From Acidobacteriota bacterium (GTDB lineage Bacteria; Acidobacteriota; Vicinamibacteria; Vicinamibacterales; UBA2999), in the NCBI GenBank assembly GCA_016192845.1, contig JACPTI010000030.1, forward strand, positions 1,281-65,280: 64,000 nucleotides of DNA. The letters are read 5' to 3'. The notes below the pieces were generated by a model. It made no database searches, was not told where the DNA came from, and was given only the letters and a program-made list of their open reading frames with translations. The translations under genes were made by a program, and so were the position numbers. Position 1 is the stretch's first letter; each line of letters opens with the position of its first letter. Positions 572 to 10,920 of the stretch are shown piece by piece.

Positions 572-1395
572 GCACGCGACGGCTGATCGGGGCTCTCGGG
601 AGTCTGCTGTTTCTGTGGGTGTCTCCGCCCGTGGCGGCGCAGGAGGCGGGCCCGAGGCCGCTCGAGCGGCTGCCGGACGGGCAGCCGAACGTGCAGGGCG
701 TCTGGGGGCCGGTCAATCCAGGCTCGCTCTCGCTCACGAATCCGGTGCCGCAGCAGGCCGACTTCGATACGACGATCAAGCCGCTGCCGAGCCGGATCAT
801 CGATCCGCCGGACGGCAGGGTGCCGTATCAGCCCTGGGCCGCCGCGCTCCAGAAGGAGCAGAACCACTATTATGCGTATCCCATACGGCCCGAGCACATC
901 GACACGCAGCACCGCTGCATGCTCTCCGGCGTGCCGCGGCTCTTCACGATCGTCCCGGCCCTCAGAATCATCCAGTCGCGCGGCCTGATCGTCTTCCTCT
1001 GGGACACCTATACGGCGTACCGGGTGATTCCGCTCGACAACCGTCCGCACGTGGCGTCGAACGTCAAGCTGTACATGGGCGACGGCCGCGGCCGCTGGGA
1101 CGGGAACACGCTGACGATTGACACGCGCGGCGTGAAGGGGCACCGGCTCACCTACATCGGCGACTTCTACAGCGACAACGCGACGATCCTGGAGCGCCTC
1201 ACCTGGACCGATGCCAACACGTTCACCTACGAGGCGACGATCACCGATCCCGCCGTCTTCACGCGGCCGTGGACGATGCGCCTCGTCCAGCGGCGGCGGC
1301 CGAACGAGGAGATGTGGGAGGGTGCGTGCTACGAGGGGATGGCGGATCCGGACCAGTTCCTGCTGAAGAGCGCCCCGCCCCCGCCGACACGGTAG
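568..1395 (+). CDS. secreted conserved hypothetical protein, paralog copy 2
   Basis: ATG 568 overlaps the upstream stop (ATGA), with GAGGAG a few nt upstream. Signal-peptide-like MSTRRLIGALGSLLFLWVSPPVAAQ. Motifs DGRVPYQPWA, GVPR, GDGRGRWDGNTL and FTRPWTM are shared with the other two copies. Confidence 0.8.
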   Translation: MSTRRLIGALGSLLFLWVSPPVAAQEAGPRPLERLPDGQPNVQGVWGPVNPGSLSLTNPVPQQADFDTTIKPLPSRIIDPPDGRVPYQPWAAALQKEQNHYYAYPIRPEHIDTQHRCMLSGVPRLFTIVPALRIIQSRGLIVFLWDTYTAYRVIPLDNRPHVASNVKLYMGDGRGRWDGNTLTIDTRGVKGHRLTYIGDFYSDNATILERLTWTDANTFTYEATITDPAVFTRPWTMRLVQRRRPNEEMWEGACYEGMADPDQFLLKSAPPPPTR

Positions 1396-1410
1396 CCCCG
1401 ACAGGCGTAG

Positions 1411-1432
1411 AGGCGGACCTTCAGGTCCGCCT
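1411..1432. terminator. perfect 9-bp hairpin (AGGCGGACC-TTCA-GGTCCGCCT), probable bidirectional terminator
   Basis: Read directly. It sits between the stop of CDS 568-1395 and the displaced 3'-end copy of the phosphatidyltransferase gene (repeat 1434-1515). Confidence 0.55.
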
Positions 1433-1433
1433 T

Positions 1434-1515
1434 ACCGCAGGAGCGCCCAGAGCCCCCGGCCGGCGGCCGTCGGGTCGCCGAGCCAGTCCGGCGGCGTCAG
1501 CCAGACGAACGCCAG
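1434..1515. repeat. 82-bp direct repeat, left island boundary (attL-like); displaced copy of the phosphatidyltransferase 3' end
   Basis: 77/82 nt identical to 6788-6869. On the minus strand it still reads FVWLTPPDWLGDPTAAGRGLWALLR-TAA, versus FVWLTPPDWLADPTAAGLGLWALLR-TGA in the intact gene. Confidence 0.85.
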
Positions 1516-1758
1516 CAAGCGCGGTGTTCGCCACGGCGCGCGTCCACCGCGCCTTTCGACTATGTCTGCCGGTTCTTCGCGCCAGCAGGGCGGTCACGGT
1601 CATGAAGGGCGAACTTATCGAGTGACGCCGCGGCCTCGCGCGTGCATGCTGGCTGAACATTCTTGCCCCATCGCCAGCGGTGGCTCGATCAGCACCGCGC
1701 CGTTCGTCTACCCTGCGGCGTTTATCGCGACCGAAATTGCCGTCGGCACTCTTGATCG

Positions 1759-3036
1759 TTGTCGAATGATGCTCCAACCTTCATTGCGTTCGAGGACGAC
1801 ACCGAGCTTAGTTACGATCGTGTCATGTTTACGCTCGTAAAGCATGTTCGCTGGGAGCTCCCGTTCCCATTACGACTTCCGCCACAGGCATTCCTCGGCT
1901 GGGAGCCCCTGCATCGCGTGGCCGCAGTGTGCCTCATTCCCGGTGTCGGTGCGCTTCAGTGGAAACGCCAATGCAGTTTTCTTCAGAGAGCCGACGTGTT
2001 TGTCGATCCCGGGCCTGAACCCTCTGACGACGAGTTTCCCTCTCACAACTACCGCTTGGCATCCCTGCTCGCTCGAAACGGCCGTGAAGTGCTGACTCTT
2101 GAACTCACGGGGGGCCGTGGTGGTGGGTTCGAAGAGGCGCGACCGCACAGCACGGCGAACGTGTTCCTCGTCTTGACATCGCAGGACAGCACTAACGATA
2201 CAGATCTCGTTAACAGGGCGGCCCAGGCGATCAACAATTTCATCACGCTTGTTGCGTTCATGACGCTCGACGGCATGAGCCGACCAATGAACGGCGATCT
2301 TGACAGCTACTACACGGTCATCAGCACCGCGCGCGTGCCGGAGGACCTCGGTTGCGGAACGGCAGAAGAGGTTCTTCTCGGCCTTGACCGTCTCACCTTC
2401 AGCTCAATTGTTGGAGAGGGCCGTTCTCACAAGGTCGGGATGAACTCGTTCGAAGATCTGATGCCGGGAGCGGCCATCGATCGGCCGCCGCTCTTGCCGC
2501 AATTCGTTGATCTAGTCAGAGACGAGCAGCGCTTCGAGCTGTGGCATCAGTTGTTTTGGTCATCGCTCAGACGATTGAAGCGCCGGGAATATGCTCTCGC
2601 CATCCTCGATGCGGAGTCCGCTTTCGAGGTGTGCGTGGCCCTTACTCTCCGGGACGCTCTTCAGCGGCAGGGATTGACTGCTGAGGCTGCGGACGCTGCG
2701 CTTGCCGCCGATCTGGGTCGTCTTCAGGATCGGCTCGTGCGCCTGGATAGAATCGCGCAAGCCGAAGGTGCCACTGAACGCTTCATCGGCAGCCAGGCCG
2801 AGCGGAACTGGCGCCACGAACTCTATGACGTACGCCACGATGTGGTTCATCACGGTATTCGCGAGTTGACATTCGACGTCTCAAAGGCCGGTATCTCTCG
2901 TGGATTGCAGGCGGTCGAGCGACTGCTCACGCTCACGCCAACATTTCGGCGAAACTTCCTGTGGACTCAAGGCGCAACGACGCTGGCGCACCTTCGGGAG
3001 AGCGCTGGTCGTGTGTCTCGCTTGTTCGAATTGTGA
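1759..3036 (+). CDS. hypothetical protein with C-terminal HEPN-like domain (Rx4H motif)
   Basis: 425-aa ORF (TTG 1759; alternative ATG 1825). C-terminal helical region ...NWRHELYDVRHDVVHHG... carries R-x4-H at nt 2833-2850. No signal peptide. Lower GC than the backbone. Confidence 0.6.
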   Translation: MSNDAPTFIAFEDDTELSYDRVMFTLVKHVRWELPFPLRLPPQAFLGWEPLHRVAAVCLIPGVGALQWKRQCSFLQRADVFVDPGPEPSDDEFPSHNYRLASLLARNGREVLTLELTGGRGGGFEEARPHSTANVFLVLTSQDSTNDTDLVNRAAQAINNFITLVAFMTLDGMSRPMNGDLDSYYTVISTARVPEDLGCGTAEEVLLGLDRLTFSSIVGEGRSHKVGMNSFEDLMPGAAIDRPPLLPQFVDLVRDEQRFELWHQLFWSSLRRLKRREYALAILDAESAFEVCVALTLRDALQRQGLTAEAADAALAADLGRLQDRLVRLDRIAQAEGATERFIGSQAERNWRHELYDVRHDVVHHGIRELTFDVSKAGISRGLQAVERLLTLTPTFRRNFLWTQGATTLAHLRESAGRVSRLFEL

Positions 3037-3440
3037 AGCGAAAGCAACGCGCCTGCTCCCCCGCTTCACGGGATGGTCATCACAGATCCGGTTTCAAAAC
3101 AGGACCGCGGACCTTCCGCGCCAGCGTTTCCACACGAACTCGGAGCACGGGGGGAAGGATCCTGATTCACCGCGTCGATGGATCCGTAGCGGCCACACAA
3201 GATGCAGCATGTGGCGCATCACCAGAGCAGGTCGCGTCCGCGGCGACAACGCCGCGACAAATGGGACAGCATCCGGCGTAGGGAGGACGACACGCACGGG
3301 CACTGAGGCTTGCGAACTCGGGTAGCAGGGCCGCGCGGGCGGGCCCGAACATCATCGCTCCAAGGTGCGGCGTTGAACATTACCAATCCGCTTGTGGGAC
3401 GCAGTTTGGCCTCGCGGAGTTTGGCGGAGATCGGCGCGCC

Positions 3441-5777
3441 GTGTTGATCCAGTACGAAGCATGGCCTACGCTGTTCGACAATTCATACATTGTCGCAGGA
3501 GCCGGCGACCGCATGTACGAACTACACAACCTTGGTTGGAACGCCTTCCAACAACTTTGCCTTACGATTGTCAGGGAAATCCTGGGCCAGACCGTCGAGT
3601 CGTTTCTCGATTCCAATGATGGCGGCAGGGACGGCGCGTTCGCGGGCCAATGGAAGACGATCGGTGCCGAGAGCTTCACCGGGCGCTTCGTCATCCAGTG
3701 CAAGTTCACAGCCAGAATCAACTCCACCCTCCGGCTTGCCCATCTGTCCGACGAAGTCGCCAAGGCCAGACGCCTGGTGGAGCAAGGTCGCTGTGACGGC
3801 TACGTCCTTCTGACAAACGCCAAGGTATCGGGAAAGAAGGCAGAACAGATCGAGGATCTCTTCACAGCCGCCGGCGTCAAGCACATCATCGTCCATGGAC
3901 TGAGCTGGATCTGCGATCAGATTCGCGAGAACAAGCGTCTTCGGATGCTGGTGCCGAGGGTTTACGGCTTGGGCGATCTCAGCCAAATTCTCGACGAGCG
4001 CGCGTATACGCAGGCCCGCGCGGTTCTCGCGTCGCTTCGCGAAGAACTCGCAAAGACCGTCGTTACCGAGGCCTACAGGAGGGCCGCTGCGGCGCTGGAC
4101 CAGCACGGATTCGTACTCCTGATCGGTGAACCCGCTGCAGGAAAGACCACCATTGCGTCGCTTTTGTCGATGGCGGCCATCGACCAGTGGAATGCGTCTC
4201 TTTTGAAGCTCGACGCGCCGGGCAAGGTCATGGAGCACTGGAATCCCCACGAACCTTCCCAGTTCTTCTGGCTCGACGACGCCTTCGGCGTCGCGCAGTA
4301 CGAGGCCTTCCTAGTTCACGGGTGGAACCACATTCTCCCGCAGTTGCCAACGATGCTCAGGACAGGCGCCAAGGTCGTGATGACGTCGCGCGACTATATC
4401 TACAACAGCGCGCGCAAGGACCTAAAGGAAGGGGCGTTCCCTCTGATGAAGGAGAGCCGGGTTGTCATCGACGTGCAGGACCTGACGGCAGAGGAGAGAC
4501 GACAGATCCTCTACAACCATCTCAAGCTCGGGAAGCAGCCGAAGAGTTTTCGGGCGGACATCAAGCCACACCTTGAAGCGGTCGCATTGCATCGGCGGTT
4601 CATTCCGGAGACGGCAAGGCGCTTGGCCGACCCGCTCTTCACGAAGGGGCTGTACATTGACGACTACTACCTGGGACAGTTCGTGGAGAAGCGTGAACAA
4701 CTCCTCCAGGAGGTCCTGCAGGGGATCGACGACGACAGCAAGGCCGCCCTTGCCCTCGTCTACATGAGGAACGACCGGCTCGAGAGCCCGATCCAGCTCC
4801 AGCCTTCAGAAGAGCAGGCGATCGCGCGTCTGCGCAGCACGCTCGGCGGCTGCGTCGCGGCACTTGAGGCGCTCAAGGGCAGCCTCGTGCAGCACTTCTA
4901 CGACAACGGCGAATCCGTCTGGCGTTTCAAGCACCCGACGATCGGCGACGCATACGCCTCGATCCTCGTCCGGAATCCAGAACTCTTGGGCATTTACGTC
5001 CAGGGCACCGCGCCCGAGAAGCTGGTGGAGCAAGTCACCTGCGGCGACGTCGGGATTGAACAGGCGGTCATCATTCCGAAGGCGTTGTATCCGCTGGTGC
5101 TCAGCCGCCTCCGCGAGTTCGCCACGACGGCGTATAAGGATCCCTGGCTCGCCCGTTGGTCGGCGCGGAGCGGGCTTCAGGGCTTCTTGAGGTGGCGCTG
5201 CTCGAAAGAATTCTTGTCACTGTACCTCGCCAACCATCCAGACCTCTTGGACAAGGTGTCGCAGCCCGGTCTCATGCTCGACTCAGTGCCTGAAGTCGGC
5301 CTCGCGGTCCGCCTCCACGAATTGGGCTTGCTGCCGGAGGGCCACTGCAGGAAGTTCGTCGCCGCTGTCAGTAACTACGCCTTGGAAGGCCAGGATCTGT
5401 ACGCGCTGGACAACCTGGGCATCCGGAGTGTGTTTGAAGATCACGAGTTCGGCGAGTTCCTGCTAAAGGTCCGCACCGAATTGGTGCCCCGGCTAGACCA
5501 CATCCGCCGCGAATGGCAGAGCAACTATCCGTCTGATGACAGGCCTGAAAGCTACATGCAGCCCCTGCTCGACTCGTTCGAAGCGCTCAAAGGTCACTTC
5601 GTGGACGACCAGGAATCAATGAAGATCGTCGAGCGGGAGGCCGGACGCGCGGCTGAATGGATTCATGAGCATATGCCCGACGACTCCGACGAGAAGCCCC
5701 GCCGCAAGCTCGGGAAAGTGACCGCGGCCGATGCGCCTGGTGGCGAACGGAGCATCTTCGACGACGTCGACTTGTGA
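3441..5777 (+). CDS. Mrr-like (PD-(D/E)xK) nuclease domain fused to P-loop/STAND-like NTPase with alpha-helical C-terminal region
   Basis: 778-aa ORF (GTG 3441; alternative ATG 3513). The N-terminus DSNDGGRDGAF...GRFVIQCKF...YVLLTNAKVS (nt 3618-3704) fits the restriction-endonuclease D...(Q/E)xK pattern. Walker A is LLIGEPAAGKTT (4125-4148) and Walker B is FFWLDDAFG (4263-4289). It is followed by about 450 aa of helical, repeat-like sequence. Confidence 0.7.
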   Translation: MLIQYEAWPTLFDNSYIVAGAGDRMYELHNLGWNAFQQLCLTIVREILGQTVESFLDSNDGGRDGAFAGQWKTIGAESFTGRFVIQCKFTARINSTLRLAHLSDEVAKARRLVEQGRCDGYVLLTNAKVSGKKAEQIEDLFTAAGVKHIIVHGLSWICDQIRENKRLRMLVPRVYGLGDLSQILDERAYTQARAVLASLREELAKTVVTEAYRRAAAALDQHGFVLLIGEPAAGKTTIASLLSMAAIDQWNASLLKLDAPGKVMEHWNPHEPSQFFWLDDAFGVAQYEAFLVHGWNHILPQLPTMLRTGAKVVMTSRDYIYNSARKDLKEGAFPLMKESRVVIDVQDLTAEERRQILYNHLKLGKQPKSFRADIKPHLEAVALHRRFIPETARRLADPLFTKGLYIDDYYLGQFVEKREQLLQEVLQGIDDDSKAALALVYMRNDRLESPIQLQPSEEQAIARLRSTLGGCVAALEALKGSLVQHFYDNGESVWRFKHPTIGDAYASILVRNPELLGIYVQGTAPEKLVEQVTCGDVGIEQAVIIPKALYPLVLSRLREFATTAYKDPWLARWSARSGLQGFLRWRCSKEFLSLYLANHPDLLDKVSQPGLMLDSVPEVGLAVRLHELGLLPEGHCRKFVAAVSNYALEGQDLYALDNLGIRSVFEDHEFGEFLLKVRTELVPRLDHIRREWQSNYPSDDRPESYMQPLLDSFEALKGHFVDDQESMKIVEREAGRAAEWIHEHMPDDSDEKPRRKLGKVTAADAPGGERSIFDDVDL

Positions 5778-6159
5778 GTGGTAACCGCGACCGTGCGCTC
5801 GCTCCATCTCCAGCGCGCGCTTCGCCGTGAACGCTGCGCGCTCATCGCTCCAGGCAGTCCGTTCTCACTGCTTTGCGCGAAAAGAGCGGCGCTTGGCGCC
5901 AAGATGTCGTCACCGAGCGTGAGAAGCGTCACTCGTCGAATCGTCCTTTCACGCACGATCCTGCCGCGTTGACGATCGGCGTGCTCACCGTACTGCTCAT
6001 CGAGGAGACGCAGAACACAGAGCGCCGCAGATAGAAACGAGTAGTCGCCATATGCTGACCGACACAGCATGGCCACGTCGGAATCCGACGCCTCCAGCGG
6101 CGGGCGTGCGGCGGACGCTCGGCGTGCTGAACCTTGCCTTGGGGGGCTGGGCGCGCCCG

Positions 6160-6378
6160 TCAACGAGCCTGGTAAATCGCTGGTCGGTATCGAGGTGATG
6201 GAACGGGCTTCCCGGCCGCCCGCGCGGCATCCAACCAGAGTTGCTTGGCGCGTTCCACCTCGCGCAATGCCTGTTCGGGAGTCTGTCCGAAGGCCGAACA
6301 GGCATCTAGATCCGGAATGTCAGCGACGTAGGCGGCGTCTTCCTCGCTGTAGAAAATGTTGATGTGGTAGTCGCTCAT
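6160..6378 (-). CDS. hicB: HicB-family antitoxin
   Basis: 72 aa: MSDYHINIFYSEEDAAYVADIPDLDACSAFGQTPEQALREVERAKQLWLD..., a typical HicB/UPF0150 N-terminal fold sequence. Overlaps hicA by 4 nt. Confidence 0.8.
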   Translation of the reverse strand: MSDYHINIFYSEEDAAYVADIPDLDACSAFGQTPEQALREVERAKQLWLDAARAAGKPVPSPRYRPAIYQAR

Positions 6379-6632
6379 GGCGCGTCCCCTAACCTCAGAT
6401 TGTAGCGCTCGACGAGCCGAAGCACCTGCCGAATCTGATACGGCTTCGCGTCGCCGCCGACGTCCTGAACGTTGACGAGTTCTGGAATCTGCCGGTGCCC
6501 GTAGATTCGATGGCTTCCGGAGGTTCTGATGATCGAGAAGCCAAACGCCTCTACCAAGCGGCAGAAGTCGCTGAAGCTCACGTTCTGTAGGTCGCCCCGC
6601 GAGATTCGGGCTAGCAGCTTGCGCGGTTGCAT
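6375..6632 (-). CDS. hicA: HicA-family mRNA interferase toxin
   Basis: 85 aa containing F..L...GF....R.SGSHRIY, the hallmark of HicA/YcfA. Lies upstream of and is translationally coupled to hicB. Confidence 0.8.
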   Translation of the reverse strand: MQPRKLLARISRGDLQNVSFSDFCRLVEAFGFSIIRTSGSHRIYGHRQIPELVNVQDVGGDAKPYQIRQVLRLVERYNLRLGDAP

Positions 6633-6644
6633 TGTTCGCGTTGG

Positions 6645-6678
6645 ACTCCGCGCAGTATAGCGACTCTCACTCCGCGCA
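6645..6678 (-). promoter_or_regulatory. hicAB promoter/operator candidate: 10-nt direct repeat flanking a TATACT -10
   Basis: ACTCCGCGCA occurs at 6645-6654 and 6669-6678 (plus strand). On the minus strand this reads TGCGCGGAGT-N14(containing TATACT)-TGCGCGGAGT, and the promoter-proximal copy ends 12 nt upstream of the hicA ATG. Confidence 0.4.
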
Positions 6679-6785
6679 CCTTCGCGACCGATAGGTAATG
6701 ATCAGTCGCCAAGGGTTGACCGACCTTCGCGCCATAAAGCCCGAAGAGGCGACAGCAGACGTAGGTAACTGGCAGCGCCGATCGA

Positions 6786-7556
6786 TCACCGCAGGAGCGC
6801 CCAGAGCCCCAGGCCGGCGGCCGTCGGATCGGCGAGCCAGTCGGGCGGTGTCAGCCAGACGAACGCCAGAATCGCGATCACCCACGCGTCGTAGGGGATC
6901 GTCGTCCGCTCGTCCCGCCAGAAGAACGCGCGCCAGAACGCCCGCGCGGCGATGGTCGCGCCGGCCGGCATCGGCCGGCCGTTGAGCGCCAGATACGTGT
7001 GGTGGATCCGGTTGATCACGGTCACGACCGACAGGACGAGGATGACCCACAGGACGCCGGCCATCCGGTCGGTGAAGGCGCCGATCATGAAGAGGACGAT
7101 GCGCTCCGGCCGCTCCATGAAGCCCACCTTGCACTTCTCGATGAGCGACTCGGCGCGCGCCCGGGTGTAGCTCGTCATAATCGAAAACATCATGGTGAGT
7201 GCCGCCACCATCACGTAGTCGGTGCGCCGGAGGTCGGCGTAGAGGTAGATTAGGCCGAGGAACAGGGCGATATCGGAGAACCGGTCGAGCGTCGAGTCCC
7301 AGAAGGCGCCGAAGCGCGAGACCGTGTTGGTCAGGTGCGCGACCTTGCCGTCGATGAAGTCGAAGATGTTGGCGACGATCATCATCACGCCCGCCAGGAG
7401 GAACCGGTCGACGCCGAGCGCGCACGCGGCCGCCACATTCACCAGCACGCCGATGAGCGTGAGCACGTTGGGGTGGATGCCGAGCGCCACGCTGGCGGCG
7501 ATGATGGCGCGCAGCGGGAACATGCAGGCGGTTCCCACCAAGCCGGTAAATGTCAT
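6786..7556 (-). CDS. CDP-alcohol phosphatidyltransferase family protein
   Basis: 256-aa multi-TM protein. DFIDGKVAHLTNTVSRFGAFWDSTLDRFSD matches the DG-x2-A(R/H)-x8-G-x3-D-x3-D family motif. Confidence 0.85.
   Translation of the reverse strand: MTFTGLVGTACMFPLRAIIAASVALGIHPNVLTLIGVLVNVAAACALGVDRFLLAGVMMIVANIFDFIDGKVAHLTNTVSRFGAFWDSTLDRFSDIALFLGLIYLYADLRRTDYVMVAALTMMFSIMTSYTRARAESLIEKCKVGFMERPERIVLFMIGAFTDRMAGVLWVILVLSVVTVINRIHHTYLALNGRPMPAGATIAARAFWRAFFWRDERTTIPYDAWVIAILAFVWLTPPDWLADPTAAGLGLWALLR
6788..6869. repeat. 82-bp direct repeat, right island boundary (attR-like); functional 3' end of the phosphatidyltransferase gene
   Basis: See 1434-1515. This copy is contiguous with the rest of CDS 6786-7556. 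Confidence 0.85.
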
Positions 7557-7560
7557 GGAC

Positions 7561-7569
7561 TGTTATAAT
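7561..7569. promoter_or_regulatory. AT-rich TGTTATAAT box in a divergent intergenic region
   Basis: On the plus strand it is an extended -10 (TGnTATAAT) about 120 nt upstream of uvrC. On the minus strand it reads TATAAC ending 7 nt before the ATG at 7556, which has no SD sequence. That placement fits a leaderless transcript of the phosphatidyltransferase gene. Confidence 0.4.
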
Positions 7570-7691
7570 TAGAGGTTTTCGTCGCCGGGATCCGCGCCCG
7601 AGCGGGGCCCCCAACCCGGGCCCCCATCGCGCCCCGCGCGATGGGGTGGCGTCGCGCGGACTGTGCGCGTTGGGGTGCTCTAGAGTAGCCC

Positions 7692-9551
7692 ATGGCGATC
7701 CACGACCTCAAGGAGCAGATTACGCGGCTGCCGGAGCAGCCCGGCGTGTATCTGTGGCGCAACGCCGCCGGCGACACGATTTACGTCGGCAAGGCGCGCA
7801 CGCTCAGGGATCGTGTGCGCAGCTACCTCGGGGCGGCCGGCCTCAGCCCGCGGCACGACGCGCTGCTCGAGGAGATCGCCTCGCTCGAGGTAATCGTCAC
7901 CGACTCGGTCATGGAGGCGCTCGCGCTCGAGAACAACCTGATCAAGCAGCGCCGGCCGAAGTACAACATCCTGCTCCGCGACGACAAGAACTACCCGTAC
8001 CTGCAGCTGACCACGAGCGAGCCGTTTCCGCGCATCCTCGTGGCGCGCCGCGTGGAGAAGGGGGGCGATTTCTACGCCGGCCCGTTCCTCCCCGCGAAGC
8101 TCGCGCGCCGGACCATGGGGCTGGCGCACCGGCTGTTCGGGATCCGGTCGTGCAACGAGGTGATCACCGGGCAGCGCGGGCGGCCCTGCCTCGAGTACGA
8201 CATCAAGCGCTGCATCGCGCCGTGCGTCGCGGAGATCTGCGGCCGGGAGCGCTACGGCGCGGCGATCGAGAACGCGAAGCTGCTCCTCGAGGGGCGCACC
8301 GACGAGCTGGCCGACACGCTGCAGGCGCGCATGCAGGAGGCGGCCAGCGCCCAGCGCTACGAGGAGGCGGCGCAGCTCCGCGACGCGCTCCGCACGGTCC
8401 AGACGCTCCGCGATCGGGAGCAGAAGGTCGCAACGCCGGGGCTCGGCGACCGCGACGTGTTCGGCCTCAAGGTCGGCCCGAGCGGCGGCGCCATCCAGGT
8501 CTTCGCGATGCGCGGCGGCCGCGTCGTCGAGCGCGTGGAGCTGGCGGTGGAGCCGGGGCTTGCCCGGCGAGACGCGGAGGTGTTGCAGGCGGCGCTGCAG
8601 CAGTTCTACGAGGACCGCGCAGCGCCCACCGAGATCAACCTGCCGCTGGAGATCGAGGACGCGGAGGCGCTGGAGGCGTGGCTGTCCGGACGCGCGGGCC
8701 GGCGCGCGCGCGTGACCGTGCCGCAGCGGGGCGACAAACGGGCCCTCGTCGACCTGGCGACGCGCAATGCCGAGCTCTCGTACCGCACCCGCTTCAACGA
8801 GATCACCGCCGCCCACTTCGAGGGGCTCGAAACGCTGCGCGCCACGCTCGGCCTCCCGGCGATGCCGCGGCGCATCGAGTGCTTCGACATCTCGACGATT
8901 CAGGGGAGCGAGACCGTGGCGTCGATGGTCGTCTGCGAAGACGGCCGGATGAAGAAGGCGGAGTACCGGAAGTTCCGGATCAAAGGGCTTCGGGCTTCGG
9001 GCTTCGGGCTTCGGACACCCAAAGCCCACAGCCCAGAGCCTAAAGCCCTTCCGGATGACTTTGCGGCCATGCGCGAAGTCGTCCAGCGGCGCTGCCGCAA
9101 GGTGATGGAGGAGGGCGGGCCGTTTCCGGATCTGATCCTGATCGACGGCGGCAAGGGGCAGGTGACCGCCGCCTATGAGGCGCTCGAGTCGATTGGTCTC
9201 GGCACCCTGGTGGCGGTCGGGATTGCCAAGCGGGAGGAGCTGCTCTTCACGCGCGACCGGTCGGAGCCCATCGCGCTCGCCGAGAACGACCCGGCGCTGC
9301 TGCTCCTCGAGCGCATCCGAAACGAGGCGCACCGGTTTGCTGTGACGTTCCACCGCAAGGCGCGCTCGATGCGTGACCTCCGCTCCGAGCTCGATGCCGT
9401 CCCCGGCATCGGCCCGCGCCGGCGCCGCGCGCTTCTCACCGCGTTTGGGAGCCTGGCCGGCGTCCGCCGCGCCACTCGCGAGGAGCTTGGCGCCGTGATC
9501 GGGCCGAAGGCAGCGGCCGCCGTTATCGATTACTTCGCGAAGTCTGCCTGA
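7692..9551 (+). CDS. uvrC: excinuclease ABC subunit C
   Basis: N-terminal GIY-YIG motif (PGVYLWRNAAGDTIYVGKARTLRDRVRSY), UVR domain, ECFDISTIQG nuclease motif and C-terminal (HhH)2 (LDAVPGIGPRRRRALLTAFGS). Confidence 0.95.
   Translation: MAIHDLKEQITRLPEQPGVYLWRNAAGDTIYVGKARTLRDRVRSYLGAAGLSPRHDALLEEIASLEVIVTDSVMEALALENNLIKQRRPKYNILLRDDKNYPYLQLTTSEPFPRILVARRVEKGGDFYAGPFLPAKLARRTMGLAHRLFGIRSCNEVITGQRGRPCLEYDIKRCIAPCVAEICGRERYGAAIENAKLLLEGRTDELADTLQARMQEAASAQRYEEAAQLRDALRTVQTLRDREQKVATPGLGDRDVFGLKVGPSGGAIQVFAMRGGRVVERVELAVEPGLARRDAEVLQAALQQFYEDRAAPTEINLPLEIEDAEALEAWLSGRAGRRARVTVPQRGDKRALVDLATRNAELSYRTRFNEITAAHFEGLETLRATLGLPAMPRRIECFDISTIQGSETVASMVVCEDGRMKKAEYRKFRIKGLRASGFGLRTPKAHSPEPKALPDDFAAMREVVQRRCRKVMEEGGPFPDLILIDGGKGQVTAAYEALESIGLGTLVAVGIAKREELLFTRDRSEPIALAENDPALLLLERIRNEAHRFAVTFHRKARSMRDLRSELDAVPGIGPRRRRALLTAFGSLAGVRRATREELGAVIGPKAAAAVIDYFAKSA
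8985..9048. repeat. in-frame heptamer-array palindrome inside uvrC
   Basis: GGGCTTC x4 in tandem (8985-9012), then GG-ACA, then the inverted array CCCAAAG CCCACAG CCCAGAG CCTAAAG CCC. It is translated as GLRASGFGLRTPKAHSPEPKAL. Confidence 0.8.
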
Positions 9552-9633
9552 CGTGCGAAATTTCACGCCCATTGGCGCTTCCGTGCCCTGGGGCTGGAAC
9601 GGTCATTGCTGGGGTGGCGCGTGGAGGCGGTGT

Positions 9634-10032
9634 ATGAACGTGCATCTTTTTCGCCTCGTGGCCTCCGGCGCGCTGATGCTGGCGGCCTCACCCGGCCTCG
9701 CCCATCACTACTTCCCGCGCGAATCCGATACGCCGACCACCGTGACCGGGACAGTCGTCCGATTCGACATGGTGAATCCGCATGCGCGCCTGCTGCTGGA
9801 AGTCCGAGACAGCAGCGGGACAGCCACCATCTGGGACATCGAGCTTGGAAGCATCCAGGTCCTGGTGGCCCGGGGATGGAAGCGGGACGCGGTGCGTGCA
9901 GGGGATGTCGTGACGGCCGACGTCATCATGTGGAAAGGCCGAGCGAACGCCGGATCCGCGCGCACGGTGCAATTGCCGGACGGCCGGAAGGTGTTCGCCG
10001 GGTCGCACGCAGGCGATTCCGCCCGGCGGTAA
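9634..10032 (+). CDS. small secreted protein, mature N-terminus HH (paralog of 12102-12524)
   Basis: ATG 9634 preceded by GGAGG. Signal peptide ...SPGLA|HHYF. Shares LAHH.F, NPH, RGW.R and DGRK.FAG with the paralog. Confidence 0.7.
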   Translation: MNVHLFRLVASGALMLAASPGLAHHYFPRESDTPTTVTGTVVRFDMVNPHARLLLEVRDSSGTATIWDIELGSIQVLVARGWKRDAVRAGDVVTADVIMWKGRANAGSARTVQLPDGRKVFAGSHAGDSARR

Positions 10033-10059: not shown

Positions 10060-10920
10060 CTAGTGGGGGCCCTTGCCCGTGACGCCGGGATAGATGCGGT
10101 AGCCGAGGTCGATGAGAGGCTGCGTGTTGCGCTCGCCTTCGTGGCACGCCTCCTCGAGCAGCTCGAGATCCCGTTCCGCCATGCGCCTGAGCGGAAACGC
10201 CATCGTCCAGGGACGCGTGTAGACGCCTGGGTCCTCGATCGTGGCCTGCACGTGGATCGTGTCAGGGTCGATGCGGGTGAACCGGGCGACGATGTGGGCC
10301 CGTTCCGAATAGAAGTTTCCGGCCTGGTCGAACCACGGCTTCGCGTTGAGGTTCGTCACGTCGACGACCAGCGTCGAGCCTTCCCAGTGCCCGCGCAGGT
10401 CTCCCTGCCACAGGCCTACATTCCCGCCGATGTGCGGACGCGCGTCGGTTGGAATGATCCAGTAGGTATGCGCCCGCTCGAAGAGCACGACGACATATCC
10501 GCGCGTCTGCAGAATCTGGATGGTGGTCGGCGTGTAGAGCGAGCGTGGAACGCCGGACGGGAAACACGGCACGTTGGGATCGATGTACCGTGCCTTGTTC
10601 TCGTCGCGCTGCGCCGCCGCCCAGCGTTGGTACGGAATCCTGCCGTCCGGCGGGTCGACGATGAGGCTCGGCCCGCCGGCGTCGTCGAGCGTCTTGGGAT
10701 GAGCCTCGATGCTCTCGGTCGCGTAGGTCGGGCCGCGCCAGAACCCCTGCAGGCTGGCTTTGCCGTCCGGTGTTCGCGGCGGATCGAACACCGCGCCCCG
10801 TGCCACCGCGCAGGGATGGAACAGTGCGGGGTCGGCCGGACAACGCTCCTGTGCCGAGGTCAGCGGCGCCGCCAGTCCGGTGACGGCAGCCGCTGCCACG
10901 ACACAGGCCGACAGCCTCAC
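10060..10920 (-). CDS. secreted conserved hypothetical protein, paralog copy 3
   Basis: 286 aa. The GTG start overlaps the upstream stop (GTGA). Signal peptide MRLSACVVAAAAVTGLAAPLTSAQ. Motifs DGRIPYQRWA, GVPR, GDLRGHWEGSTLVVD and YTRPWTM. Confidence 0.8.
   Translation of the reverse strand: MRLSACVVAAAAVTGLAAPLTSAQERCPADPALFHPCAVARGAVFDPPRTPDGKASLQGFWRGPTYATESIEAHPKTLDDAGGPSLIVDPPDGRIPYQRWAAAQRDENKARYIDPNVPCFPSGVPRSLYTPTTIQILQTRGYVVVLFERAHTYWIIPTDARPHIGGNVGLWQGDLRGHWEGSTLVVDVTNLNAKPWFDQAGNFYSERAHIVARFTRIDPDTIHVQATIEDPGVYTRPWTMAFPLRRMAERDLELLEEACHEGERNTQPLIDLGYRIYPGVTGKGPH

Follow-up and report, generated by a model that had tools for sequence, protein, structure and literature searches.

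The 64,000-nucleotide stretch of DNA analysed here (the window), which corresponds to positions 1,281 to 65,280 of the forward strand of contig JACPTI010000030.1 (GenBank assembly GCA_016192845.1) from an Acidobacteriota bacterium, carries near its left end a gene encoding a single protein in which a predicted Mrr-type nuclease is joined to a STAND nucleoside triphosphatase (NTPase) of the nSTAND3 clade and to a compact C-terminal domain. A preliminary description, made from the sequence alone, had proposed this protein as a candidate antiviral sensor resembling the Avs systems. The open reading frame (ORF) that it delimited is present, as is every motif that it quoted: positions 3441..5777 of the plus strand form one uninterrupted ORF of 778 amino acids counted from GTG. 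Translation almost certainly starts at the ATG at 3513, giving a coding sequence at 3513..5777 and a protein of 754 residues, because the full-length homologues (n = 120) are mostly 752–761 residues long, the equivalent of M25 (MY[ED]LH.LGW) is the N-terminus of nearly all homologues inspected, with a few longer ones bearing unrelated extensions, and an AGGAG lies 11 nt upstream of this ATG. Residues are numbered according to the 754-residue protein unless the 778-residue form is stated, such that D40, K64 and K211 correspond to D64, K88 and K235 of the latter. In the 778-residue numbering the motifs lie at 60–65 (DGGRDG), 84–89 (VIQCKF), 123–130 (LLTNAKVS), 229–237 (GEPAAGKTT) and 275–283 (FFWLDDAFG); of the key residues proposed for mutation, D64 and K88 were correctly placed, while the Walker A lysine is K235 and not K234. 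The gene is intact, real and well conserved, and its ORF is far beyond chance: at E ≤ 1e-3, the clusters of homologous proteins number more than 3,480. Looking up the exact sequences of the window STAND protein and of the product of a 256-residue flanking gene returned no record. Promoter, terminator and Rfam scans over 1300–7000 gave nothing informative. The parts of the gene are given below, where A1 is an alignment of 43 sequences from which all invariant residues were called.

3513..5777, plus strand: most probable coding sequence of the restriction endonuclease (REase)–nSTAND3 protein, 754 residues plus stop (ORF, homologue lengths and N-termini, AGGAG, A1 alignment up to the C-terminal motif)
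3441..3512, plus strand: in-frame extension from GTG, probably untranslated (homologue N-termini at the M25 equivalent)
3513..3962, plus strand: Mrr-type PD-(D/Q)xK nuclease domain, predicted effector, residues 1–150 (Pfam Mrr_cat, invariant residues, AlphaFold2 model)
4059..4526, plus strand: nSTAND3 P-loop NTPase core, residues 183–338 (Pfam PF20720, invariant residues)
Residues G205–T213, F251–D256 and T291–R293, plus strand: NTPase motifs, respectively Walker A, Walker B and the TSR motif (sequence)
4527..5012, plus strand: region assigned as STAND helical and winged-helix-like, residues ~339–500 (secondary structure, invariants, Foldseek colinearity)
5013..5678, plus strand: family-specific compact all-α C-terminal domain, presumed sensor, residues ~501–722 (domain model)
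5679..5774, plus strand: disordered acidic tail ending in RSIFDD[VI]D (predicted local distance difference test, pLDDT, below 50; A1)

The order of an Mrr-type nuclease, nSTAND3, a helical and winged-helix region, an all-α domain and an acidic tail is assigned with very high confidence. The restriction-endonuclease pattern previously read at the N-terminus is borne out by the invariant D...QxK and by a match to Mrr_cat (PF04471; E = 2.6e-4), which is marginal in the window protein (21.5 bits against the Pfam cutoff of 21) and reaches 30.1 bits in more divergent relatives. QxK is the Mrr-family variant of the catalytic motif, and nuclease-dead mutants of Avs4 reportedly carry changes in a QxK at almost the same position. 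D36, D40, Q62, C63, K64, E81 and K84 are invariant in A1, and nearly every full-length representative retains the nuclease motifs. In the AlphaFold2 model the domain displays alternating helices and strands with a pLDDT of 80–90. The Argonaute-associated REase models of PADLOC match it weakly, and it begins at residue 1, with no Pfam match to the winged-helix DNA-recognition domain Mrr_N.

The P-loop or STAND-like NTPase recognised in the preliminary description is an nSTAND3 domain (PF20720), matched at E = 1.5e-40 and 138.9 bits (cutoff 27.2) over profile positions 2–154 of 155, and this match is likewise found in all of the homologues listed. NCBIfam gave P-loop noise below threshold and nothing else. 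Besides Walker A (GEPAAGKTT) and Walker B (FFWLDD), the protein contains MTSRDY, the counterpart of the TT/SR arginine motif described for EfAvs5, ZAR1 and Apaf-1 (PMC11897194). Invariant in A1 are G210, K211, T212 and T213 of the first motif, D255 and D256 of the second and S292 and R293 of the third. Beyond the Walker motifs, about 450 residues had been described as lacking any recognized motif. This stretch is not featureless: MTSRDY, FKHPTIGD and α/β elements are found in its first part, and only some 220 residues make up a family-specific all-α domain. These elements lie at residues 405–500 (pLDDT 75–88 in the AlphaFold2 model), and W470, F472, H474-P475-T476, G478 and D479, spanning FKHPTIGD, are invariant in A1. 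As modelled, residues ~339–500 are consistent with a STAND helical domain followed by a winged-helix-like domain.

The AlphaFold2 model of the whole protein has a mean pLDDT of 72.3 and a predicted template modelling score (pTM) of 0.48, with a disordered linker at residues 152–183 (pLDDT below 50), values of 50–75 over the NTPase (residues 190–370) and about 90 over the all-α region (residues 500–720). In a Foldseek search of the PDB the best matches were Avs4 with portal (E = 1.6e-9), human SAMD9 (~1e-6), the Avs5 filament (6.4e-5) and plant NRC2, with McrBC far behind the first three at E = 0.07, and the alignments to Avs4, SAMD9 and Avs5 are colinear through the helical/winged-helix region. 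TM-scores were low, which is to be expected of a multi-domain model whose inter-domain geometry is uncertain. At the C-terminus, pLDDT falls below 50 over residues 724–754, where a disordered acidic linker of low conservation precedes a terminal motif (residues 746–754, window 5748–5774) in which R746, S747, F749, D751 and D753 are invariant in A1; RSIFDD[VI]D could be a docking or auto-inhibitory peptide.

Modelled alone, residues 495–725 reach a pLDDT of 86.9 and a pTM of 0.82, and the C-terminal domain is predicted to adopt a compact α-helical fold whose similarity to ARM/HEAT-like proteins is generic at best. The observation that this region looks unlike TPR repeats was confirmed, as it matches no Pfam domain, TPR included, and Foldseek matches of the isolated domain are non-TPR; searched alone, it retrieved neither Avs5 nor SAMD9. 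Among the 120 best matches, conservation relative to the query declines from about 80% in the NTPase to about 55–65% in the C-terminal domain. A search with residues 370–754 among 1.84 billion representatives (clustered at 50% identity) found 776 proteins at E ≤ 1e-3. The architecture of the family is essentially fixed, since 41 of the 46 matches of at least 690 residues share the nuclease signature LGW..FQ.LC..DGGRDG..QCK and three more are merely N-terminal truncations starting near QCK. The two exceptions, P0170 (738 residues) and P0248 (835 residues), carry the family's C-terminal half (residues ~370–754) behind unrelated N-termini and have no nSTAND3 match; the N-terminus of P0170 weakly resembles LmuB (PADLOC). 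They could be fusions of an upstream ATPase gene with a STAND gene, or assembly artefacts.

A scan of one genome per species identified 131 loci, which is a lower bound because the scan was seeded with two peptide patterns only. Eighty of these were kept, and the neighbourhood counts below use 80, 77, 70 or 36 loci. Over the aligned part, the proteins at the 80 loci share 51–72% identity with the query, and the family keeps 50–72% identity across more than 12 phyla, a combination that points to horizontal transfer. By record title, the hosts at the 80 loci comprise, among others, Acidobacteriota, Nitrospirota, Beta-, Gamma- and Deltaproteobacteria, Chloroflexota, Cyanobium, Bacteroidota, Planctomycetota, Verrucomicrobiota, Gemmatimonadota, Ignavibacteria and Parachlamydia. 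Relatives were found in 71 plasmid records, 20 of them near full length, including plasmids of Piscirickettsia and rhizobia. The copy on Piscirickettsia salmonis plasmid pPSA1-3 (57% identity, annotated 'hypothetical protein') has a DEAD helicase/RecB-like nuclease pair on one side and a SIR2/ATPase pair on the other. Further homologues are those of Huaxiibacter (L063) and Vibrio owensii (L068) and the Piscirickettsia protein WP_054300661.1. The phage collections gave one partial IMG/VR match, no full-length INPHARED match and otherwise distant PDC-S73-type genes, and a phage origin was rejected on these grounds. In present annotation, family members appear as 'hypothetical protein' or, wrongly, as 'EcfA2' or 'restriction endonuclease'.

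A survey of homologue neighbourhoods, the check proposed in the preliminary description, revealed defence and mobile contexts. The homologue in L007 is part of a type I restriction–modification (R-M) operon (L007:6408-17075) with the order hsdM–hsdS–Ymh–[gene]–Fic–hsdR, the same embedding signal by which PDC candidates were nominated; other single loci lie beside IS1595, between two ISAzo13 transposases, near a pentapeptide–TIR gene and near an SMC_N/AAA_23 cluster. At 36 loci, the two nearest genes on each side were compared with the outermost genes (144 proteins in each set), and matches to the PADLOC model mad3 numbered 18/144 among the nearest and 2/144 among the outermost (Fisher p = 2.6e-4). 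The other frequent models in the nearest set were LmuB (15), AriA (15) and PtuA (10), whereas in the outermost set no model was matched by more than three proteins.

This signal is largely that of one gene, an SMC/ABC-type ATPase. When such ATPases were collected by iterative phmmer, one was found on the same strand immediately upstream (position -1) at 25 of 70 loci, compared with at most three at any other single position, and in 17 of these 25 cases no more than 40 nt separated it from the STAND gene (own ORF calls). Examples are L041 (Ralstonia), L043, L047 (Delftia), L057 and L073, each with the ATPase at 7334-9973, and L054 (7223-9973); L037, L038, L050, L081 and L082 are also paired. 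SMC_N was detected by Pfam in 22 of 30 large upstream genes, and PADLOC assigned the upstream ATPases either to PDC-S06, with a best E value of 1e-226, or to LmuB, with a best E value of 5e-66. The partners belong to different families, being only 13–28% identical to the L041-type ATPase. The ATPase is absent from position -1 at 45 of the 70 loci, the window included, and none lies within 10 kb at 41 of 77. The pairing suggests a two-gene cassette joining two 'single-gene' PADLOC candidates; no paper on it was found in the literature. In the clade of the window protein the STAND gene has no conserved neighbour.

The window copy resides in a small islet, bracketed by an 82-nt direct repeat (1434–1515 and 6788–6869, 94% identical) and having a GC content of ~0.60 compared with 0.64–0.72 in the flanks. 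Its called genes are a 403-residue gene, the STAND gene and hicBA, and its further features are as follows.

1434..1515, no strand: left repeat copy, a duplicated pseudo-3' end of a 256-residue gene and left boundary of the islet (repeat comparison)
1825..3036, plus strand: the 403-residue neighbour P0271, with an invariant Rx4H (homologue family, weak HEPN matches)
hicB 6160..6378 and hicA 6375..6632, minus strand: toxin–antitoxin pair at the right end of the islet (HicB_lk_antitox 1.1e-6, HicA_toxin 1.3e-9)
6788..6869, no strand: right repeat copy, the real 3' end of the 256-residue gene (6786..7556, minus strand) and right boundary (repeats, L096)

A related metagenome contig, L096, matches the window flanks (256-residue gene 90%, uvrC 87% and left-flank gene 76% identity) and at 6940-6990 presents the empty site, where the two flanking genes meet directly, stop codon to stop codon (TAG|TTA); none of 45 related loci at this site contains the STAND gene or hicA. 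The repeats, the empty site and the 45 negative loci together identify ~1516–6787 as a 5.3-kb insertion, placed in the 3' end of the 256-residue gene. No integrase was matched by Pfam among the called genes of the islet, which therefore looks like a cis-mobilizable or decayed integrative element, and no tRNA lies near it. The earlier view of a mobile-looking island thus holds for the insertion and for hicAB, the latter identified by Pfam, while a HEPN-like neighbour is plausible only: the 403-residue gene comes from a rare family of 18 clusters with an invariant Rx4H motif, and seven of the 18 members match HEPN_RiboL-PSP weakly, with a best E value of 0.008. A homologue at L090:2281-3507 lies between Mrr and Eco57I genes with no STAND gene, and the 403-residue gene may be an independent defence-island gene. 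It was rejected as a conserved partner of the STAND gene, having no homologue near the 80 other loci and being unrelated to the L001 neighbour. It also matched no ATPase model in Pfam, PADLOC or NCBIfam, leaving the window STAND copy without an ATPase partner in the islet, and no linked methyltransferase was found in the window (ORF list, Pfam).

Two further observations concern the left edge of the islet. Between the stop codon of the left flanking gene and the left repeat lies a 36-nt segment (1398–1433) that contains a GC-rich hairpin (GGCGGACC-TTCA-GGTCCGCC) and is absent from the empty site of L096. In addition, three paralogous ORFs (86–571, 322–1395 and 10060–10920), which correspond to direct repeats D2–D4, share motifs such as MGD.RGRW.G.TL and TRPW.M, and two of them adjoin each other at this edge.

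The protein thus has the domains described, its catalytic and NTP-binding residues are conserved, its relatives occupy mobile and defence-type contexts and its gene lies in a 5.3-kb islet insertion. A role in conflict or defence is likely. The gene encodes an intact representative of an extensive family of NLR-like proteins, each made as a single polypeptide, that has spread horizontally; in our estimation its function is probably Avs-like abortive-infection defence. The absence of a conserved neighbour in the window clade and of an ATPase from position -1 at 45 of 70 loci supports the autonomy of the protein. By analogy with Avs3, Avs4, Avs5 and Avs8, the following mechanism is put forward with moderate confidence. 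In the uninfected cell the protein would be a nucleotide-bound, auto-inhibited monomer; an infection cue would bind the C-terminal domain, possibly with involvement of the acidic tail, and allow NTP-dependent oligomerization through the NTPase and winged-helix module. The oligomer would bring the nuclease domains together in an active form, cutting DNA without sequence specificity.

Several points weigh against this explanation. The C-terminal domain spans only ~220 residues and lacks an analogue among known sensors: searched alone with Foldseek, it gave no significant match in the PDB (best E = 0.32, to CNOT9, designed armadillo proteins and importins) or among the viral structures of BFVD (best E = 0.54). 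It is also unusually conserved and therefore unlike the surface expected of a sensor engaged in an arms race. The ATPase at position -1 in 25 of 70 homologues implies that sensing is possibly not intrinsic to the protein. The AVAST and PD-lambda-4 (Avs8) models of PADLOC gave no match at E ≤ 1, and neither the whole protein, the A1 profile nor the nuclease domain alone had a usable sequence or profile match among PDB chains. The low model confidence of the NTPase region makes the inter-domain geometry uncertain, the neighbourhood test used ORFs called with a home-made tool and took its control genes from the same loci, and no experimental report was found in the literature on the family or on PDC-S73.

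The main rival explanation regards the protein as the effector of a two-gene system whose sensor is the upstream LmuB-/PDC-S06-like SMC/ABC ATPase, in which case the window copy would be a derived orphan, inactive alone or reliant on an ATPase encoded elsewhere. The marked preference of the ATPase for position -1, the short gaps, the frequency of SMC_N and the PADLOC assignments of the upstream genes all speak for such a system, as does P0170, in which an LmuB-like N-terminus is joined to the family's C-terminal half. However, most loci have no adjacent ATPase and more than half of those surveyed have none within 10 kb, the solo copies are intact and highly conserved, some being flanked by insertion sequence (IS) elements only, the partner ATPases are of different families, and the STAND module already provides a switch and a sensor layout. 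On balance we consider this explanation unlikely.

A reading that we hold to be similarly improbable is that of a distinct, unnamed antiviral STAND lineage with a novel trigger, wired to an ATPase in about one third of genomes. Its compact, unusually conserved, non-repeat C-terminal domain would respond to a cue of another type than those of the characterized Avs families, which might be a conserved small ligand, some state of a nucleic acid or a signal from the host. If true, a single pathway would connect two major bacterial sensor classes, the NLR-like STANDs and the Lamassu-like SMC ATPases, and the PADLOC 'single-gene' candidate PDC-S06 would sometimes be half of a two-gene system.

An NTP-dependent Mrr/type IV-like nuclease that senses foreign or modified DNA directly, with the C-terminal domain binding DNA and the NTPase serving as a switch, is a weaker rival than the two-gene system. 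The Mrr-type catalytic domain, the annotation of relatives as 'restriction endonuclease' and the homologue inside an R-M operon are in keeping with it, and the conserved C-terminal domain would fit an invariant ligand such as DNA. Against this, neither Mrr_N nor any other DNA-binding domain was detected by Pfam, the NTPase is of the STAND type with TSR and winged-helix-domain histidine signatures, the folds of Avs4, SAMD9 and Avs5 (1.6e-9 to 6.4e-5) rank well ahead of McrBC (0.07) and the window contains no linked methyltransferase, which makes direct DNA restriction a distinctly doubtful role. A non-defence role, as an addiction or stabilization module of mobile elements or as a STAND-type regulator, is very unlikely: the gene does travel with IS elements and plasmids and, in the window, with an islet that carries hicAB, and Lee et al. 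(Nature 2026) report that many STAND clades lack an association with defence, but the protein has a conserved nuclease active site instead of a helix–turn–helix output domain, defence-type genes are enriched among its neighbours and its sister family PDC-S73 was nominated through embedding within defence systems.

Should Avs-like defence be validated, a widespread nuclease-armed relative of Avs5 would join the bacterial NLR-like repertoire, and its very small, well conserved sensor would be an attractive minimal model for the coupling of recognition to effector function in STAND proteins. The recurrent operon with an SMC/ABC ATPase offers a lead on cross-talk between two sensor classes, and a family now mislabelled or hypothetical could be given an informative annotation name.

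Among known systems, the tripartite effector–STAND–sensor layout of Avs proteins, which the preliminary description had already recognized, is present and is supported in silico by the Pfam domains, the A1 invariants, the model and Foldseek; the large TPR-like sensor of the general Avs definition is missing (~220 residues, no TPR), Avs5 being an accepted short-sensor exception. The statement that the protein is shorter than typical Avs proteins is correct for Avs1–4, whereas the solved Avs5 chain is of similar size. The solved Avs4 chain (Mrr-like nuclease–STAND–TPR; PDB 8dgf) has 1,534 residues, about twice the length of the window protein, with which it shares the nuclease–STAND fusion and for which it is the best Foldseek match (E = 1.6e-9). 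The additional residues of Avs4 make up a portal sensor of the TPR type. Avs8A (PD-lambda-4A) likewise combines an N-terminal Mrr nuclease with a STAND NTPase, and Avs4 and Avs8A are the Mrr-nuclease STANDs with experimental support. The genes for Avs8A and Avs8B form a two-gene operon. Avs8A, which senses major capsid proteins, has a double-stranded DNA nuclease activity that requires Mg and ATP, as tested with capsid protein as inducer (PMC12236752), and so offers a precedent for the nuclease activation proposed here. The window protein differs from both in its compact, non-TPR C-terminal domain and in the nSTAND3 clade of its NTPase.

Avs5 (AVAST type 5, SIR2–STAND; EfAvs5 and PaAvs5; PDB 9nc9) shares the NTPase family nSTAND3 (PF20720), an nSTAND3 domain having been reported in the Avs5 proteins studied in an Avs5 paper. 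Its solved chain comprises 768 residues, compared with 754 here, and its sensor is likewise short (PMC11897194). The order of effector, nucleotide-binding oligomerization domain and sensor, the TT/SR motif and the Foldseek match (E = 6.4e-5) add to the likeness. In contrast, the effector of Avs5 is a SIR2 NADase and not an Mrr-type nuclease, and the window protein has no sequence match to any solved Avs5 chain. Avs3 and Avs4 form tetramers and Avs5 forms filaments (PMC11897194, PMC12236752). In the survey of Lee et al. (Nature 2026), sensors of at least 400 residues were clustered and BLAST hits to Mrr and other effector proteins were added to the seed set, yielding 589 STAND clades, of which 198 are defence-associated; the present family may already be among the 589.

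In PADLOC-DB v2, the matches at E ≤ 1 were limited to PDC-S73, TRIP13, two Argonaute-associated REase models, mad8 and PDC-M58A, and only PDC-S73 (PDLC05079) was substantial (E = 3.3e-29, profile positions 4–400 of 752). PDC-S73 proteins, of ~750 residues, share the N-terminal REase–nSTAND3 module (hhalign probability 99.2% over residues 2–369), but homology to the window protein is undetectable by hhalign past residue ~370. Divergent members of the window family align along almost the whole PDC-S73 profile, while the window protein itself does not match PDLC05079 end to end. True members do so over positions 1–751 (E = 1e-133 to 1e-172) and are ~22% identical to the window protein. Two such genes bear the annotation 'restriction endonuclease'; one comes from a temperate phage (Clostridium phage HM T, HMT_19; L174:3001-5364) and the other from a plasmid (B. 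thuringiensis; L175:2992-5241), each with an integrase gene a short way downstream, three genes away in the phage and adjacent on the plasmid. The PDC set comprises 145 candidates nominated by 'guilt by embedding' in BREX, DISARM or type I R-M systems, and no paper was found under the name PDC-S73.

Systems that combine an SMC/ABC ATPase with a nuclease include Lamassu (LmuB and LmuA), PARIS, Septu, HEC-01 to HEC-03 and PDC-S06. The likeness to Lamassu lies in the LmuB-/PDC-S06-like ATPase upstream of the family at 25 of 70 loci and in one member whose REase is weakly LmuA-like; the window copy, in contrast, has no ATPase partner and no match to the LmuA model, an adjacent LmuB-like ATPase being seen in other genomes only. 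To our knowledge, LmuA has no STAND switch of its own. The suggestion of an undescribed defence family was overstated, given that the NTPase falls in a curated Pfam family and that a sister family is already listed as PADLOC PDC-S73. The family is not categorically new; it is an uncharacterized subfamily of nuclease-armed antiviral-type STAND NTPases of the nSTAND3 clade, sister to PDC-S73, whose undescribed parts are its compact C-terminal domain and, in other genomes, its recurrent pairing with an ATPase.

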